In this document: one piece after another, positions 10,982 to 18,398 of the stretch | Layout of the letters: every line of letters starts with the position of its first letter | How positions within the stretch are numbered: the stretch's first letter is position 1 | Origin: an uncultured Dehalococcoidia bacterium | Lineage (GTDB): Bacteria > Chloroflexota > Dehalococcoidia > Lucifugimonadales > UBA3495 | Direction: 5' to 3' | Assembly: GCA_951812625.1 (NCBI GenBank) | Contig: CATOSP010000003.1 | Span: forward strand, 245,335-309,334 | Length of the DNA: 64,000 nucleotides | The notes under the pieces: model-generated | The model's database searches: none | What the model was told of the DNA's origin: nothing | What the model saw: the letters and a program-made list of their open reading frames with translations, nothing else | Program-made: the position numbers and the translations under genes

Positions 10982-11334
10982 CTGAAAAACGTCATTTTGC
11001 GGGAATCCAAGTCACACATGATAATGATTAAAAAGTAGGAGCGATTTCCACCTGTTAATTCCCCGCCAGGCTTCGCTCCTTTGACCAATGCTTGACCAAC
11101 GCCGGAAATCTACCGGGCGTTGCGCCGCAGGCTTCGGACACAAATTCCTGTTGATATAAGGTATAATCACTGGCGTTCCAACCCAGATGGCAACCCCCCC
11201 TTTTGCAAAGCGCAGGTCAAGGGGTCACGGACTGGTCTCACGGAGGACAGTCCTCTAATGTATAGCCCGTTATGTATAGTGCGTAGTGCATGACCCGGAC
11301 GGCGCTTCCCGGAGGAGTCAGGGAGAAACACTCA

Positions 11335-12129
11335 ATGAGCAGGTTTTTGGACCAACTTGAACGGATCAGTCAGAACGCACCCATACGGCTGGGGTTCGGC
11401 GTATCGCGCGCCAAGAGGACCCCTGGCATGGCCCTGGTGGCCTTGGTCTCCGGCAACCACGCGGAAGGCTGCGCCGCAGTGGCCAGCGTGGCCCCCGACG
11501 GCGCGGTCCTGTCTGGCCTCGGCAGCCCCGCCGGCCTGGAGTCCCTGAAGGACAGCCTGCCCGCCGCCCCCTGGGGCGTCCTCTGCGAATCCCTCACTTC
11601 CGAGGACACCAAAGCCTATGAAGAAGCGGGCTGCGACCTGCTGGCGTTTGGCCTTGAGGGGACTCGCGTTTCTGCCCTGCCGTCCGACGACGTTGCCCGC
11701 GTCCTGTGTATTGAACCCCGTCTCTCCAACCGCGAGGCCCGGGCCATCGACGCGCTGCCAGTGGATGTGCTGCTGGTGGACATGCAGGGCCGTTCCGGTG
11801 GGTGGACGCTGGCAGACATCGCGGCTGTCGCCGGGGTAAGCCGCCGGGTGGACAAGTACGTTCTGCTGCACCTGTCCCAGCCACCGGAGAAGGAGGACCT
11901 GGAAGCGATCCGCAATGTCGGCGTTCAGGGCCTTGCCCTGGACATCGGAGCGGTATCCCCGGAGGCTCTGCAGGAACTAAAGACCAACTTGCTCGATATG
12001 CCGCGCCAGCGCCCCCACCGCAGGGACCGGGCCAGCGCAGTGGTTCCTTCCTCGGTGTTCCCCTCGGGTGGCCATACCCCAGAACCAGAACCAGAACCCG
12101 ATCCAGACGACGACGATGACCTTGACTGA
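11335..12129 (+). CDS. Conserved hypothetical protein, possible TIM-barrel/aldolase-like
   Basis: Alternating beta/alpha pattern and acidic PEPD..DDDD tail; start placed at the ATG after GGGAG (the ORF extends to 11290). Confidence 0.6.
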   Translation: MSRFLDQLERISQNAPIRLGFGVSRAKRTPGMALVALVSGNHAEGCAAVASVAPDGAVLSGLGSPAGLESLKDSLPAAPWGVLCESLTSEDTKAYEEAGCDLLAFGLEGTRVSALPSDDVARVLCIEPRLSNREARAIDALPVDVLLVDMQGRSGGWTLADIAAVAGVSRRVDKYVLLHLSQPPEKEDLEAIRNVGVQGLALDIGAVSPEALQELKTNLLDMPRQRPHRRDRASAVVPSSVFPSGGHTPEPEPEPDPDDDDDLD

Positions 12130-12163
12130 CCGGCTGTCGCCTCCACGCCGGGTCCTATAATCA

Positions 12164-12865
12164 ATGCTGCTCAGATACCTGGACCTCCTCCAACACGACC
12201 CTGCCAGTTACCTGATCCTGGTGGGGTTGACTGTACTTTCCGTGGTCATCGCGGTCACAATCCATGAATTCAGCCACGCCGCAATCGCCAGTGTGCTGGG
12301 CGACCACACAGCCAGGCATCAAGGCCGCGTGTCCCTGAACCCCGTAAGGCATCTGGACCCTGCCGGGTCTCTATTGTTCCTGGTCGCCGGGTTTGGCTGG
12401 GGAAAGCCCGTTCCGGTGAACCCATACCGGCTGGCCCACGGGGGAGTCGGCGAGACCATGGTGTCGGCGGCCGGCCCACTGTCGAACCTGGCAACGGCGT
12501 TCCTGATGGCTGTCCCCATCAAGCTCAGGATGGTGGAATACTATGGCTTCGGGCTGGCTTCGATCATGAACCTGAGAAGCGGGGACATGGGAGACTTCCT
12601 TGCCGCCACACTTGGAATGACCGTGCTTTTCAACCTTGTCCTGGCCGTGTTCAACCTCATTCCCCTCGCTCCACTGGACGGTTCCAGGGTGCTGGGTGGG
12701 TTGATTCCCAGCCAGAGGCGGGAAAGCTACGAGCGGTTCCAGAGGTTCGGCCCGGTGGTCCTGGTGGGCCTGATTATGCTGGACTTCCTGATTGACTTCA
12801 GCATCCTTGGGACCATAATCTCCCGCCCGGTAAACCTCCTGTTCTCCCTGGCCGTAGGCGGGTAG
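12164..12865 (+). CDS. Site-2 protease (M50) family membrane metalloprotease
   Basis: HEFSH, AAGPLSN, FNLIPLAPLDG; multiple TM helices. Confidence 0.93.
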   Translation: MLLRYLDLLQHDPASYLILVGLTVLSVVIAVTIHEFSHAAIASVLGDHTARHQGRVSLNPVRHLDPAGSLLFLVAGFGWGKPVPVNPYRLAHGGVGETMVSAAGPLSNLATAFLMAVPIKLRMVEYYGFGLASIMNLRSGDMGDFLAATLGMTVLFNLVLAVFNLIPLAPLDGSRVLGGLIPSQRRESYERFQRFGPVVLVGLIMLDFLIDFSILGTIISRPVNLLFSLAVGG

Positions 12866-12952
12866 GCGTGATTCTACAAGTGTTATTCAACGGATTCTGG
12901 AACATCAGGGTCGAGTTCATTAATCACTGAGCATGACTGTCGTCAGACTCCA

Positions 12953-12981
12953 TTGACCAGCGGCCTATAGTGTCGTAGTAT
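12953..12981 (+). promoter_or_regulatory. Sigma70-type promoter of the NYN cassette
   Basis: TTGACC-N17-TAGTAT. Confidence 0.7.
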
Positions 12982-12987
12982 AGACGT

Positions 12988-13055
12988 ACCATCTCCCCTG
13001 CCCCCCACAGCGGCAGGGCGCAAGGCCACCCTTCGGGGTGGTCGTTGCATTTTTT
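12988..13055 (+). ncRNA. Candidate small structured RNA/leader ending in an intrinsic terminator
   Basis: Hairpin CCCTGCC/GGCAGGG (12996-13018), then GCAAGGCCACCC-TTCG-GGGTGGTCGTTGC and T6. Confidence 0.5.
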
Positions 13056-13060
13056 ATGAC

Positions 13061-13705
13061 ATGGTTACAAATGTCTACGTCGATGGTTTCAACCTCTACT
13101 ACGGTGCTTTGAAGAACACTCCATATAAGTGGTTGGACCTCGCTGAGACGTGCCGGCGTCTCCTGCCCGACCGCCAGATCAACAGAATCAGGTATTTTAC
13201 TGCCCCTGTTGTCCCCTTGGCCCACGATCAGCAAGTCCGTGACCGGCAGAGCTCCTATATTCGTGCCCTCCGAACCATCCCTAATCTAACCATTCACTAC
13301 GGTAGGTTCTCCTCCAACCCATTCAGAGCTCCTATCTATCCTCTCGTTTACCCGAGTCCTACAGGCCCGCCGCAGACTGTCCAGATTCAGAAGACCGAAG
13401 AAAAACGTTCTGACGTGAACCTAGCGACCCTATTGCTTATCGATTGTTTCGACAACGAATTCGATGAAGCTGTTGTCATATCAAATGATTCAGATTTGAC
13501 GCTGCCTATCCAGTACGTTGGAAATCGATTCGACAAACAAGTCGGAGTTATCAACCCGCATCACCGCAGCCGGGTCAGCAGTGAACTTCGGCAGGCAGCC
13601 ACCTGGACATACAGGCAGATAAACCGGAGTGTTTTGGAGAACAGCCAATTCCCTCCGGTGATGGCCGACTCCAACGGCGAGTTCAGAAAACCCGCTGCCT
13701 GGTGA
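13061..13705 (+). CDS. NYN-domain (LabA/PIN-like) ribonuclease
   Basis: VYVDGFNLYY, EEKRSDVNLA and ISNDSDL acidic motifs. Confidence 0.9.
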   Translation: MVTNVYVDGFNLYYGALKNTPYKWLDLAETCRRLLPDRQINRIRYFTAPVVPLAHDQQVRDRQSSYIRALRTIPNLTIHYGRFSSNPFRAPIYPLVYPSPTGPPQTVQIQKTEEKRSDVNLATLLLIDCFDNEFDEAVVISNDSDLTLPIQYVGNRFDKQVGVINPHHRSRVSSELRQAATWTYRQINRSVLENSQFPPVMADSNGEFRKPAAW

Positions 13706-13828
13706 CAAACTCCCGCTTCCAGTCCCCTCCTCGTGCTAGAATGCGGTAACTCGATACGGCCCCTGCCCTGTGCTTGGGGAGAGAGTCCAGGTCGGGTATC
13801 TGGAATCGACATAGGGAGCCTTTATTCG

Positions 13829-14272
13829 ATGGCGCAACAGCCGGAAGACGTTCCCGAGGCCGACCTCGACGGGGTGCTATTGCCGGAACAGGGCATCGTT
13901 GATCTTACCGACAAGCTCACCGGCTACCTGACCGAGATTGAGTTGGGTGGACTGCCGGACATCATCGGGCAGGTGCTGGACGATTTTCTCGAACAGTGCG
14001 GGAGTATGCCAGAGGACCTGACCGCCTCCGACGCCTTTGACCAGATAACCCGTAACCAGCTTGCGGTGACATTGGCCTATCAACTGGGGCGGCTGGAGGG
14101 CCGTTCCCCGCAGGTGGTCCGCCTGTTTATGGGCCAGGCCATCGAGGAGTGGGGGACCCGGCCGATCGAGGAGTCTGCGGTCGTCTCCGACCAGGACCTT
14201 CAGAACCCCAAGGAGCTTGTCTACCCGCGCCTGCGCCGCCTGGAGTACACGGACCCCGACGAGAGCCAATAG
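13829..14272 (+). CDS. Acidic hypothetical protein
   Basis: ATG after GGGAG; genome-typical codon usage; the ORF extends to 13733. Confidence 0.6.
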   Translation: MAQQPEDVPEADLDGVLLPEQGIVDLTDKLTGYLTEIELGGLPDIIGQVLDDFLEQCGSMPEDLTASDAFDQITRNQLAVTLAYQLGRLEGRSPQVVRLFMGQAIEEWGTRPIEESAVVSDQDLQNPKELVYPRLRRLEYTDPDESQ

Positions 14273-14319
14273 CCGCGCGCAGCCGCCATCATCCCAATCA
14301 TGAAATCAAGGGGGGAGCC

Positions 14320-15513
14320 GTGACCAGTCCTCTTAACTCCGGACCCGAAGCCCACGACCTGCTATTGACCGGGGGCACACTGCTCGACCCGTCCCAGGGA
14401 ATCCACGACCGGCGGGACGTCGCCTTCAAGGACGGTGTGGTGTCCGCCGTGGCAGAGCGTATAGATCCGGCCTCTGCCTCCTCTGTGGTGGACGTGCCGG
14501 GAAAGTTGATAACCCCCGGCCTGATCGACCTCCACGGGCATTTCTACCACGGGGCCAACGGCACCGCCGTTCATGCCGATGAAATGTGTCTTTCCGCGGG
14601 CTGCACCACCGGCGTTGACGCGGGCAGCGCGGGGTTCCTGAACTATCCGGCCATGCGCGACTACGTTTTCCCCGCCCACCGGACCCGGCTGCTGTCCTTC
14701 CTTCATATTGGTGCGATTGGACTGGCGGCCAACCGGGTACTGGGCGGAGGACTCCACGATATGCGGATAATCGACGTGGACCAGACCGCCGACGCCATCA
14801 AGCAGAACCCCGGTTTCTGCTACGGCGTCAAGGTGCGGATGCACATCAACGCAGTCGCCGCCTGGAACGCTCACGAGGCCATGCGCAAGGCCAAGGACGC
14901 CGCCGGGCAGTCGGGCACCCGCCTCATGGTGCATGTCAGCGGCACTCCCATACCCCTGCCGGACATCCTGGAGTTCATGGGACCGGGAGACATCGTCACC
15001 CACGCCTTCAACGGCAACCCCGAGGGAATCCTGGATAACCAGGGGAAGATACGCCCCCAGGTCAAGGAAGCCGCCGAGCGCGGCGTGATAATGGACGTGG
15101 CCCACGCCGGGGTGCACTGCGACGTGGACGTGGTGAAGTCCGCCTTGGGGCAGGAGTTCTTCCCCGATACCATCAGCACCGATATTCACATCGCGCCGCC
15201 GGGCCGCACCGTATACCTGATGAACGACCTGGTGAGCAAGTTCCACGCCATGGGCATGTCCCTCTCCGACGCGGTGGCGGCCAGCACCAGCAAGCCCGCC
15301 AGTGTGCTGGGCATGGAGGACGAGATAGGGTCCCTGGCCCCCGGTATGTCCGGCGACGCCGCCGTCTACGACCTGCGGGAAGGGCGCTTCGTGTGGTTCG
15401 ACAGCGCCGGGCACAGCGTCGACGGCAAACTGCGGTTGGACACCTTCATGTCAGTCCGGGCCGGGGCCGTCGCGTGGCGCGAGGGTCAACTCATGCAGAT
15501 GGGCAACTGCTGA
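14320..15513 (+). CDS. Amidohydrolase/deacetylase-family metallohydrolase (dihydroorotase-like)
   Basis: PGLIDLHGH, DAGSAG, GVKVR, MVH, THAF, ISTD; GTG start after GGGGGAG. Confidence 0.88.
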   Translation: MTSPLNSGPEAHDLLLTGGTLLDPSQGIHDRRDVAFKDGVVSAVAERIDPASASSVVDVPGKLITPGLIDLHGHFYHGANGTAVHADEMCLSAGCTTGVDAGSAGFLNYPAMRDYVFPAHRTRLLSFLHIGAIGLAANRVLGGGLHDMRIIDVDQTADAIKQNPGFCYGVKVRMHINAVAAWNAHEAMRKAKDAAGQSGTRLMVHVSGTPIPLPDILEFMGPGDIVTHAFNGNPEGILDNQGKIRPQVKEAAERGVIMDVAHAGVHCDVDVVKSALGQEFFPDTISTDIHIAPPGRTVYLMNDLVSKFHAMGMSLSDAVAASTSKPASVLGMEDEIGSLAPGMSGDAAVYDLREGRFVWFDSAGHSVDGKLRLDTFMSVRAGAVAWREGQLMQMGNC

Positions 15514-15634
15514 GGACAGATACTCCCGTTTCCTTCCGGGGAGTACCGTCCCTGCTGGTTTTTCCGGGAAAACCTGCCCCGGTCGGACCGGCGGCGGGAA
15601 TCCCTGGTTTCATTCTTGATGGTAGGTTGCCGAA

Positions 15635-15856
15635 ATGGCCATGATCCGGGAACCCTGCCAGGATTGTGCCGGCGAAGGCTCCACCGGCTGTCTTAACCCG
15701 GACTGCGACCGGGGCCACGTCTACGTCATGGACGCGGAGCATTGGGACCTGTCCGGACGCAACGGCCGGTGGGAGGACTGCCGTCAGTGTGAAGGTACGG
15801 GCTTTCAGAGATGCCCCAACTGCCGGGGCCGCGGCTGGTACTGGCAGCAGGAATAA
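15635..15856 (+). CDS. Small stand-alone DnaJ-type zinc-finger protein
   Basis: CQDCAGEG, CLNPDCDRG, CRQCEGTG, CPNCRGRG. Confidence 0.65.
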   Translation: MAMIREPCQDCAGEGSTGCLNPDCDRGHVYVMDAEHWDLSGRNGRWEDCRQCEGTGFQRCPNCRGRGWYWQQE

Positions 15857-15903
15857 CACTGCTGCCAGGATTCACCATACTGCTATGGAGGTCTGAGGCA
15901 ATC

Positions 15904-16686
15904 ATGTCTGATGACAAGAAGAGTTACAGGGAGCTATTGCTGGGCCGGCAGGATGCAATCTCATCTCGCCAACCCGCCGCAACACCCCCGGCAGTCACGG
16001 ATGAGAAGAGCGTTGATGTCCAGCCGTCGCGGGAACCGCAGAAACTCCCGGGCGACGCCCCAACTCCTCAAACTGGTGGGGGTTACATTGATGCGGATGA
16101 CAAGAGGCAGTGGATCGACGACTGGTGGAAAAGTCAGCCTCGTCTGGGATGGTTCAATAAATACGGCGGGGTGCGCAAGAAGCTTTACGACTTTATTGGA
16201 GACGACGAATTTCCCGAGCTAAGGGTATTGGGTAACATGAGGATCAATGGCGACCCCTGTCCATTCATTATCGTGGCCACCAATAAACGCCTGCTATGCC
16301 TGTATGCGGGTCCGGCCAGTAAACAGTCTTCCGAACCAAGAAACATCACGGTGCCATACGAAGCCATCGAGAAAATCAGGCTAACGCGCAGACCCAGCGA
16401 GGATGAGCCATACATGTATACCCTATGGCGGTTAGGGGGGAATGGCCATGAGGTTGAGTTCCGGGACCCTGAGTCCCTGTGGCGTATTGTCAACCATCTG
16501 GAACATGTGCATGGTGTTTCTCGGGAAAGGCACATAAGAACGGCAAACTTCTCAGCCCTAAGTCGGTCTCCACGTCCGTCTTCATCCCGGGCTGCCACCG
16601 GTTACTCCAGCACTGAACGGGAACGGATTTCAAGAACATCCCAGCCAGGAGAGCGCACCCAGGAGTCCCGCAAAAACCTGCACTGA
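15904..16686 (+). CDS. Hypothetical protein, possible bacterial PH-like domain
   Basis: IIVATNKRLLCL...VPYEAIEKI pattern; disordered termini; ATG downstream of GGAGG/GAGG. Confidence 0.5.
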   Translation: MSDDKKSYRELLLGRQDAISSRQPAATPPAVTDEKSVDVQPSREPQKLPGDAPTPQTGGGYIDADDKRQWIDDWWKSQPRLGWFNKYGGVRKKLYDFIGDDEFPELRVLGNMRINGDPCPFIIVATNKRLLCLYAGPASKQSSEPRNITVPYEAIEKIRLTRRPSEDEPYMYTLWRLGGNGHEVEFRDPESLWRIVNHLEHVHGVSRERHIRTANFSALSRSPRPSSSRAATGYSSTERERISRTSQPGERTQESRKNLH

Positions 16687-17706: not shown

Positions 17707-18000
17707 ATGGCGGCGGGCACAGGCCGAACATCGGCAACCAGGACCAGACGCACCAAAACCTCTCTGTCCGCGGCGTATTCCGAATGTTCGGAGTTGCAGC
17801 CGGGTATAGCAATAAAGCCGTCAACACTTGAGGGTAAGCCCTGCGTTGCCGGGACCAGGATTCCGGTGTCCCTTGTGCTGCGTTACATAGCCACCAACGA
17901 AGACCCTATAGAAGGTTTGGGCTTGACTCCGAAGGATATCGAAGACTGTCTGGAGTTCAGTGCGCTTCTCTGCGATTATTCCGCTGCTGAGCGTGAATAG
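17707..18000 (+). CDS. DUF433 antitoxin-like protein
   Basis: GKPCVAGTRIPV...LTPKDIEDCLEF. Confidence 0.85.
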   Translation: MAAGTGRTSATRTRRTKTSLSAAYSECSELQPGIAIKPSTLEGKPCVAGTRIPVSLVLRYIATNEDPIEGLGLTPKDIEDCLEFSALLCDYSAAERE

Positions 18001-18005
18001 CGGCC

Positions 18006-18398
18006 TTGCGCTTCCTGTGCGAGAACCACATCGACAGGAAGTTGGTGGCCCTGCTTCGTAGTTTTGATGCCTCGGACGTCCGGGTGGTCTCAAATGATCC
18101 CGATCCAGGAGACACTGAAATTGTCAGAGACGCGAACGCGGACGAGCGCATAATCGTCACCCGTGACCGGGGATTTCCAAATCGTCGTATTTGCTCCATC
18201 AATCATGGCACGATTTTTATTCCTCAGAGGTTTGAGGGCAGACCGTTAAACCTCCCTGAAACATTCGATTGCATAAGCCGCTTTCTTGAGTCGGGCAGGC
18301 TAACCGACCTGGGACACGGGACATGTACCGTAACCCCGGACGGCGTTGCCATCAGGACGCAAGGGGGAGAGGAATCTATAGCAGTACAGGAAATTTGA
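18006..18398 (+). CDS. DUF5615 PIN-like toxin
   Basis: MRFLCENHI, D.EI, RIIVTRDRGF; immediately follows DUF433. Confidence 0.8.
   Translation: MRFLCENHIDRKLVALLRSFDASDVRVVSNDPDPGDTEIVRDANADERIIVTRDRGFPNRRICSINHGTIFIPQRFEGRPLNLPETFDCISRFLESGRLTDLGHGTCTVTPDGVAIRTQGGEESIAVQEI

Follow-up and report, generated by a model that had tools for sequence, protein, structure and literature searches.

A conserved two-hairpin RNA gene accompanies HEC-09-like NYN nuclease genes and is a candidate RNA antitoxin

To our knowledge, the nucleases that RNA antitoxins are known to control are ToxN-like or HEPN proteins. In AbiF systems, a promoter drives a short stem-loop RNA that ends at a terminator, and read-through reaches the RNase gene (PMC12373285, PMC12737573). 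As described in these papers, the RNA (RCd22, AbiFr) has one or two hairpin motifs and no pseudoknot, a single bulge matters in AbiFr, the HEPN (Abi_2) nuclease is dimeric, and the RNA neutralises its toxin by binding, in cis as well as in trans (PMC12373285). ToxIN, CptIN and TenpIN share an order of constitutive promoter, RNA, terminator and RNase gene and have spread horizontally (PMC3401426); ToxN has a MazF/Kid fold. The DUF3800-I to -XI, drum and skipping-rope motifs are terminator-ended RNAs that associate with a single protein family and may lie before or after its gene, on the same or the opposite strand (PMC5737381), and the main text of that paper contains neither ‘NYN’ nor ‘DUF88’. 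On the protein side, HEC-09 is a PADLOC candidate whose genes were found embedded in defence loci; it is described as a lone gene, and ‘non-coding’ and ‘ncRNA’ are absent from the main text (bioRxiv 2024.01.29.577857). A 2017 classification of PIN domains gives the NYN group in question as of unknown function, and a DUF2384-fused distant member of the family is reported there as a nicotine-pathway hydroxylase (PMC5499597).

The window, that is, the whole stretch of 64,000 nucleotides analysed here, comes from an uncultured Dehalococcoidia bacterium and holds a short RNA gene directly upstream of a HEC-09-like NYN gene. The features are as follows.

12869 to 13728, no strand: inserted low-GC cassette, from the M50 peptidase stop to the next gene’s promoter (ends approximate)
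12953 to 12981, plus strand: sigma-70-type promoter of the RNA (-35 TTGACC at 12953-12958, 17-nt spacer, -10 TAGTAT at 12976-12981)
12988 to 13055, plus strand: predicted non-coding RNA of ~65-68 nt (short 5' pyrimidine tail, hairpin 1, hairpin 2, U-tract)
12996 to 13018, plus strand: hairpin 1 (arms CCCTGCC at 12996-13002 and GGCAGGG at 13012-13018)
13020 to 13048, plus strand: hairpin 2 (UUCG loop at 13032-13035, bulged base near the foot)
13050 to 13055, plus strand: T6, 3' of hairpin 2
13061 to 13705, plus strand: predicted NYN/PIN-fold RNase, 214 aa, HEC-09-like (PF01936, E 2e-10)

An earlier note on this DNA had named a near-consensus promoter, a GC hairpin, a C(UUCG)G hairpin with T6 ending 5 nt before the ATG, and an intact NYN/PIN-fold nuclease gene without a Shine-Dalgarno (SD) sequence. 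All are present: the promoter has 9 of 12 consensus matches, both hairpins and the T6 lie as listed, the 214-aa frame is intact, and the duplex energy with the anti-SD heptamer is +1.2 kcal/mol. Taken alone, the promoter is not significant, because promoter-like sites in 11500-15000 number 3, against 0.9 +/- 1.0 in shuffled sequence. The RNA ends are placed from the promoter and the U-tract. The 71-nt unit at 12987-13057 folds at -34 kcal/mol (z = -3.9), a stability reached by 0 of 200 shuffles and due mainly to hairpin 2 (z = -4.5), which has a conserved two-pair foot and a single bulge. Hairpin 1, with a CCC:GGG base and up to 9 pairs, is not significant by itself in the window (z = -1.24; 30 of 200 shuffles) and is accepted as real because it is conserved in homologs. 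Hairpin 2 and the T6 form an intrinsic terminator that is probably leaky, and hairpin 2 is possibly a protein-binding surface as well. A covariance model of the RNA (R1), which has the window sequence among its members, matches 12988-13056 with E 4e-14, the sole match in its genome at E<=0.01. An Rfam search of 12700-14000 gave no match at E<=5, and a tandem repeat search of the window leader found none. Directly after the U-tract, an out-of-frame ATG opens an 18-codon frame (window 13056-13112, plus strand) that overlaps the NYN start and could dampen NYN translation.

Set beside the described systems, the locus is most like AbiF in its plan: promoter, short stem-loop RNA with terminator, and proposed read-through into the nuclease gene, with two hairpins, a single bulge in hairpin 2 and a predicted nuclease dimer. 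It differs in the protein, which is NYN/PIN in place of HEPN (Pfam gives NYN only), and in that NYN RNA genes also occur on the opposite strand and downstream; the abiF RNA motif gave no Rfam match over the NYN RNA. The ToxIN, CptIN and TenpIN order is likewise found in the window, horizontal spread is shared with these families, and tandem hairpin repeats under one terminator, which recall ToxI arrays, occur in some plasmid relatives only. Against these likenesses, the window has no tandem repeats, the RNA gives no pseudoknot signal, the nuclease is NYN/PIN by Pfam and Foldseek, and the layout is not fixed across the family. Because repeats and a pseudoknot signal are lacking and the fold is different, the module falls outside ToxIN, CptIN and TenpIN; it is no AbiF member either. 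The earlier note’s type III-like label holds for the layout at the locus and the covarying RNA beside homologs, and fails as membership of those families. Judged by analogy, closer models are AbiF with its abiF RNA and the DUF3800-type RNA motifs, although the latter have another structure and another partner (PF12686), and their adjacency to the NYN RNA is sporadic; Rfam finds DUF3800-IX in some of the same loci and no family over the NYN RNA. With VapBC type II toxin-antitoxins and LabA/DUF88 NYN proteins (VPA0982, 2QIP; MARF1), the nuclease shares a PIN-like fold, four acidic residues and a predicted dimer, but the module has no conserved protein antitoxin and adds an extra beta-hairpin, a C-terminal tail and a linked RNA gene.

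The RNA unit was first recognised by eye in the upstream regions of NYN homologs, and an iterated nhmmer profile gave 112 copies in 102 of 139 loci. Ninety-five non-redundant copies were aligned by sequence only, with 4 loci of long or partial copies omitted; row L076 comes from an unpublished genome (G063), which supplies 1 of these 95 rows, 1 of the 106 loci, 1 of the 112 tree rows and 1 of the 5 distant genomes cited below. The covarying two-hairpin motif that the earlier note proposed to seek is strongly evident: 92.3% of 1870 cells are paired in a 20-pair structure, against 33-48% in slid controls, and compensatory double changes occur at 18 of the 20 pairs (265 cells), which 0 of 500 shuffles reach. 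Relatedness inflates this shuffle test, and the slid control and a mutual-information ranking agree with the structure. Hairpin 1 has 86.9% of cells paired and double changes at 7 of 9 pairs, hairpin 2 96.8% and 11 of 11. The top 13 covarying column pairs all fall within, or extend, the two nested hairpins; weaker covarying pairs build no stacked helix, and there is no pseudoknot signal. Pairs exchange through G-U wobble (at one pair, UG 44, CG 18, UA 10) and the loop of hairpin 1, divergent at the window locus, is UUCG in 63 of 95 family members; both traits speak for an RNA and against a DNA feature. The Rfam search that had also been proposed found no family over the RNA, and in 10 homolog loci only RNAI was matched, at gathering level. 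At locus L031 the shape of hairpin 2 occurs again, there followed by a run of A in place of U. A conserved structured RNA of ~65 nt thus lies beside HEC-09-like NYN genes.

The linkage is tight. Among non-redundant loci with NYN identity of at least 40%, the RNA lies within 250 nt at 105 of 106, a figure that comes partly from the training set (8 duplicates dropped); R1 finds it at 5 of 18 loci of 30-40% identity and at 0 of 7 below 30%. As a fairer check, a genome-wide scan of 61 relatives placed an RNA at 25 of 25 intact NYN genes (21 + 4). Across the class, in 141 genomes that may overlap those supplying training loci, a listed RNA match lies within 300 nt of 27 of 33 intact genes (from 40 protein rows, with the window, matches weaker than ~1e-17 and second fragments left out), and the remaining 6 gave a match on local re-scan with E from 7e-10 to 0.0097, two of them weak (0.003, 0.0097). 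No intact close NYN gene without an RNA match was found in the genome-wide scans. The pair is spread over many bacterial phyla, and each of the 5 distant genomes scanned has the RNA once or twice. The more alike two proteins are, the more alike their RNAs tend to be (Mantel rho 0.28, p 0.005, n 81), a co-divergence that is also expected from co-inheritance alone.

Its position, in contrast, is free. At identities of at least 40%, terminator and promoter precede the nuclease gene on the same strand at 81 of the 106 loci, and the RNA is on the other strand in 24, downstream and convergent in 22 and upstream and divergent in 2. Of the convergent loci, 21 belong to one mostly actinobacterial group, which includes a Mycobacterium prophage and a Paenarthrobacter plasmid, and one is acidobacterial. 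Further divergent and convergent layouts occur in a Thermus-like subclade, and a downstream same-strand layout in L207 and L208. A quick tree of 112 proteins, with 11 layout labels set by eye, implies at least 7 layout changes, and its well-supported branches make 3 divergent origins necessary. A promoter with at least 8 of 12 matches stands just upstream of the RNA at 73 of 83 co-oriented loci (2 of 81 in controls taken 300 nt away), 5 of 5 divergent loci (2 of 5 in the controls) and 12 of the 22 convergent loci (0 of 21 in the controls). With four layouts and, usually, its own sigma-70-type promoter, the element is a portable RNA gene and not a leader. More distant subfamilies (a Bacteroidota-like, an E. 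coli/Phaeobacter and a proteobacterial plasmid type, the last with a conserved inner loop in its RNA) have their own promoter, hairpin and terminator, as judged by weak model scores, folds and eye; L192, L024 and L028 show no recognisable hairpin pair. At L218:1270-1350 (genome G181), a much more distant LabA-type NYN gene carries its own promoter and a different nested-hairpin RNA that ends in a U-run, and sits behind two orphan copies of the two-hairpin RNA; other NYN subfamilies may likewise be paired with RNAs.

The nuclease matches almost the whole of the PADLOC HEC-09 profile PDLC04163 (residues 5-214 against positions 6-202 of 203; E 6.5e-42), for which no curated cut-off is given. A Thermus relative scores E 6e-98, and the Thermus-like subclade far above the window protein. 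The active-site aspartates D8, D118, D143 and D145 are invariant in 112 of 112 NYN proteins, and W214, in the C-terminal tail, is kept in 109. The AlphaFold model (pLDDT 90.9) has VPA0982 (2QIP) and the MARF1 NYN domain as its nearest structures in Foldseek, and shows an inserted beta-hairpin (82-115) and the conserved C-terminal tail; a PDB sequence search gave 2QIP only (E 0.065), and an NCBIfam search gave no match. The protein is probably a homodimer, as its modelled dimer scores 0.85 against 0.01 for the best control, with pLDDT of at least 90 and contacts that agree by at least 96% between runs. Of 30 solved dimers, 20 reach the mark used, as does 1 of 23 monomers; resemblance to PIN dimers of known structure may account for part of the score. 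The family is large, with 1079 clusters at 50% identity (E <= 1e-30); the nearest relatives lie in Dehalococcoidia. Matches are patchy, in 28 of 61 relatives and up to 6 per genome; 453 plasmid records carry the family, including small E. coli and Klebsiella plasmids, and it is rare in a phage collection (3 records). One proteobacterial DNA query matched E. coli genomes at 11 plasmid sites and at no chromosomal site. No conserved adjacent protein antitoxin was seen beside the NYN genes. Distant members at L188:1186-2157 and L189:1165-2106 are fused to a C-terminal Xre/MbcA/ParS-type domain, and some relatives of these fusions are annotated ‘HspA monooxygenase’. The idea that the fused domain replaces the RNA found no support, as both fusion loci keep an upstream hairpin pair (E 0.003 and 0.06).

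The RNA and NYN unit is an insertion. In 300-nt windows, GC is 0.47-0.55 over 12800-13700 and 0.58-0.70 in the flanks (windows within 11300-12800 and 13550-15600; the edge window 12650-12949 has 0.56), in keeping with the AT-richer unit noted earlier. That the unit is self-contained is borne out by its absence from 4 of 5 same-genus genomes searched: the flanks join across 103 bp in G003 and ~211 bp in G002, G004 and G006, against 860-1000 bp in the window, and these four genomes have no match to the NYN protein; the fifth gave no match to the flanks.

RNA copies without an intact nuclease gene are common. Among 61 relatives, 44 strong RNA matches (13 weaker ones left out) lie beside an intact NYN gene in 24 cases, a broken one in 8 and none in 12, of which 3 still show a decayed gene start; the 69 copies of the class sample divide into 30, 8 and 31. 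Intact neighbours, sought with P0001, are absent at 20 of the 44 and 39 of the 69, and many of these copies still precede the opening codons of an NYN gene. Twenty orphan loci were examined: several retain the first NYN codons, most have a clear -35 box, and three lie near a more distant NYN gene. No recognisable remnant is seen at ~9 of the 44 copies and at many of the 69. Because of these remnant-less copies, and of two that stand before DUF3800 genes, the RNA may have an independent life. The excess of orphan RNAs over RNA-less genes is suggestive only, since part of it is to be expected: deletions hit a gene of 640 nt more readily than a unit of 65 nt, and the promoter is shared when the two are co-oriented.

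Repeated forms also occur. On the E. coli plasmid NZ_CP145651, a 4.6-kb ColE-like plasmid, four 33-nt hairpin repeats of the hairpin 1 unit with A-rich linkers precede a terminator directly before the NYN gene (L032:1081-1230); this array is the most tractable natural version of the module. The Klebsiella plasmid NZ_CP031882 has two hairpin repeats under one terminator. Array linkers are near-identical and not spacer-like. Whole promoter and RNA units are in tandem in L040 and L213; the latter (genome G176; L213:561-626 and 1526-1861) holds four RNA copies, with three tandem units ~135 bp apart and no NYN gene found nearby, possibly an orphan antitoxin array. In L156 and L173 (G019), tandem orphan RNAs lie upstream of two paralogous 460-aa genes that resemble sigma-70-family factors by eye.

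Some orphans share hotspots with DUF3800 genes or DUF3800-IX RNAs (L229:963-1176, L224:956-1159, L255:2130-2473, L220). Two genomes of a single genus have a pair of RNA units ahead of a DUF3800 gene, and in a third genome the unit stands in a row with RNAs of the DUF3800-IX motif. Shared downstream elements of their own are seen at the DUF3800 genes of L229/L224 and L265/L266, and Rfam gave no match at L229 and L224. A general partnership of the RNA with DUF3800 found no support: R1 scored strongly at 1 of 30 further DUF3800 loci and at none of another 10, leaving 39 of 40 without a strong match. We infer that the DUF3800-adjacent RNAs are orphans at sites where RNA-paired nuclease modules replace one another.

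These observations make it reasonably probable that the RNA and the NYN nuclease form an addiction or defence module with an RNA antitoxin, resembling AbiF and type III systems; judged from sequence, the RNA is most likely an antitoxin on a new toxin fold. A trans-acting RNA that would bind the nuclease is favoured by the free position and strand, by the survival of the RNA next to broken genes and by the tandem arrays, and lack of complementarity to the mRNA together with freedom of position makes the protein the likely partner. In the proposed model, in which transcription, direct binding, inhibition, toxicity and trigger are all inferred, a strong constitutive promoter would make an abundant two-hairpin RNA of ~65 nt that ends at its own terminator. 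At the window locus, occasional read-through and an SD-less start would yield little NYN protein; in other lineages, with the RNA gene on the other strand or downstream, the nuclease would have a separate promoter. The RNA would bind the Mg-dependent NYN RNase by shape, using its 5' tail, the hairpin 1 base and the bulged hairpin 2 foot, and keep it off. Should RNA supply stop, on plasmid loss or phage host shut-off, the freed nuclease would cut cellular RNA and arrest the cell, with plasmid or island addiction, and perhaps abortive infection, as the outcome. Against this model stand chiefly the negative phage test of one HEC-09 representative described below, and also the RNA copies that lack any NYN remnant, the low recovery by R1 below 40% identity and the nicotine-pathway report for a DUF2384-fused distant family member.

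An unlikely alternative to the antitoxin model casts the RNA as a cofactor, guide or sensor that the nuclease requires, so that the complex is the active form and the RNA activates or directs it, for instance on a phage molecule. Tight linkage and freedom of position fit this equally. One HEC-09 representative, cloned with ~150 bp of upstream sequence and induced in E. coli, gave no protection from any phage that was tried and is not noted to be toxic, a remark that the source makes among the HEC candidates for HEC-03 and HEC-04 only (bioRxiv 2024.01.29.577857); DUF3800-I, drum and skipping-rope RNAs, which lie on either side or strand, are given as of unknown function (PMC5737381). A guide role, the other reading offered by the earlier note, is disfavoured because the RNA has no variable unpaired segment: its 5' tail is conserved, its loops are stable and the array linkers barely vary. 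Nor does a cofactor give a reason why orphan RNAs with intact promoters are kept or multiplied after the gene has decayed.

The RNA might instead serve as a decoy or preferred substrate and in this way, by titration or negative feedback, buffer an RNase that is not toxic and has a housekeeping or regulatory role. Hairpin repeats joined by A-rich linkers could be substrates for cleavage, a connection of bacterial NYN proteins with RNA processing has been reported (PMC5499597), and the HEC-09 source reports neither defence nor toxicity for it (bioRxiv 2024.01.29.577857). Genes that are patchy, multi-copy, plasmid-borne, often broken and without fixed neighbours are unlike housekeeping genes, and we regard the decoy as improbable.

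A purely cis-acting element, either an attenuating leader or, when downstream, a bidirectional terminator, is harder still to credit. It would suit the leader position of the 81 close loci, the placement of hairpin 2 at the gene’s 3' end in convergent loci and the few orphans that precede unrelated genes. In divergent loci, though, the RNA is not on the mRNA at all; because the promoter, 5' tail and both hairpins are kept off the mRNA and in every layout, the RNA cannot be a leader only, and no covarying alternative fold was found. The prediction of weaker U-tracts in read-through loci was not borne out: co-oriented tracts, with 4.3 U in 7 nt (n 71), are no weaker than convergent ones with 4.1 (n 14), and tuning for read-through is therefore not seen.

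Still less probable is a DNA-level feature of a mobile cassette, such as an attachment site, a transposon end or a dispersed palindrome. Tandem duplications, orphans at hotspots and the inserted cassette are what it would explain, whereas the fixed promoter distance, the G-U-tolerant pairs, the UUCG loops and the 3' U-tract are signatures of RNA, and the distant genomes have one or two copies each. Transposon-like ends were looked for and are unsupported: the -35 box and the stop codon bound the stretch over which paralogs are similar, and no common terminal sequence was seen. Last and least probable is a type I (antisense) antitoxin on the NYN mRNA: type I loci do resemble the convergent layout, where the RNA overlaps the gene’s 3' end by up to 11 nt, and the window RNA’s first bases can pair with codons near the NYN start in a read-through transcript, but most RNA copies are on the mRNA’s own strand and in no layout does complementarity rise above that of non-cognate pairs (the longest match is 7.4 nt for cognate and 7.3 nt for non-cognate pairs at 76 co-oriented loci, 7.4 and 7.0 nt at 22 convergent ones).

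In agreement with the earlier note, a literature search, mostly of non-subscription papers, found no published pairing of an NYN protein with an RNA antitoxin, and the NYN-dedicated structured RNA is widespread and apparently undescribed. If the antitoxin reading is correct, an RNA-controlled PIN/NYN RNase would add a third fold to the targets of RNA antitoxins, the large uncharacterised NYN family would gain a function, and an RNA partner could explain why HEC-09 looked inert. A testable idea would also be offered for the orphan DUF3800 RNA motifs, and a module of <800 bp with natural versions in E. coli makes the key test simple. More tentatively, this could be the first PIN/NYN toxin caged by a free-standing, portable RNA antitoxin, with the orphan and tandem units serving as anti-addiction ‘immunity arrays’ at hotspots shared with DUF3800. 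Such a reading covers a family of >1000 protein clusters. Were it true, RNA-caged nucleases would have arisen independently on at least three folds (MazF-like, HEPN, PIN), the unexplained DUF3800 motifs might be antitoxins too, and the four-repeat E. coli array would parallel the starting point of the path from AbiF to Cas13.

Other features of the window were also noted. The leader of the downstream gene (13700-13840, plus strand) begins with an extended -10-like site, which congeners have kept, and it folds worse than shuffled sequence (z = +2.05). Two further lower-GC patches follow on the plus strand: at 15635-16686, a small DnaJ-like zinc-finger ORF with a 291-aa orphan ORF, and at 17707-18398, a pair of DUF433 and DUF5615 (PIN-like) genes that is likely a toxin-antitoxin module of type II.
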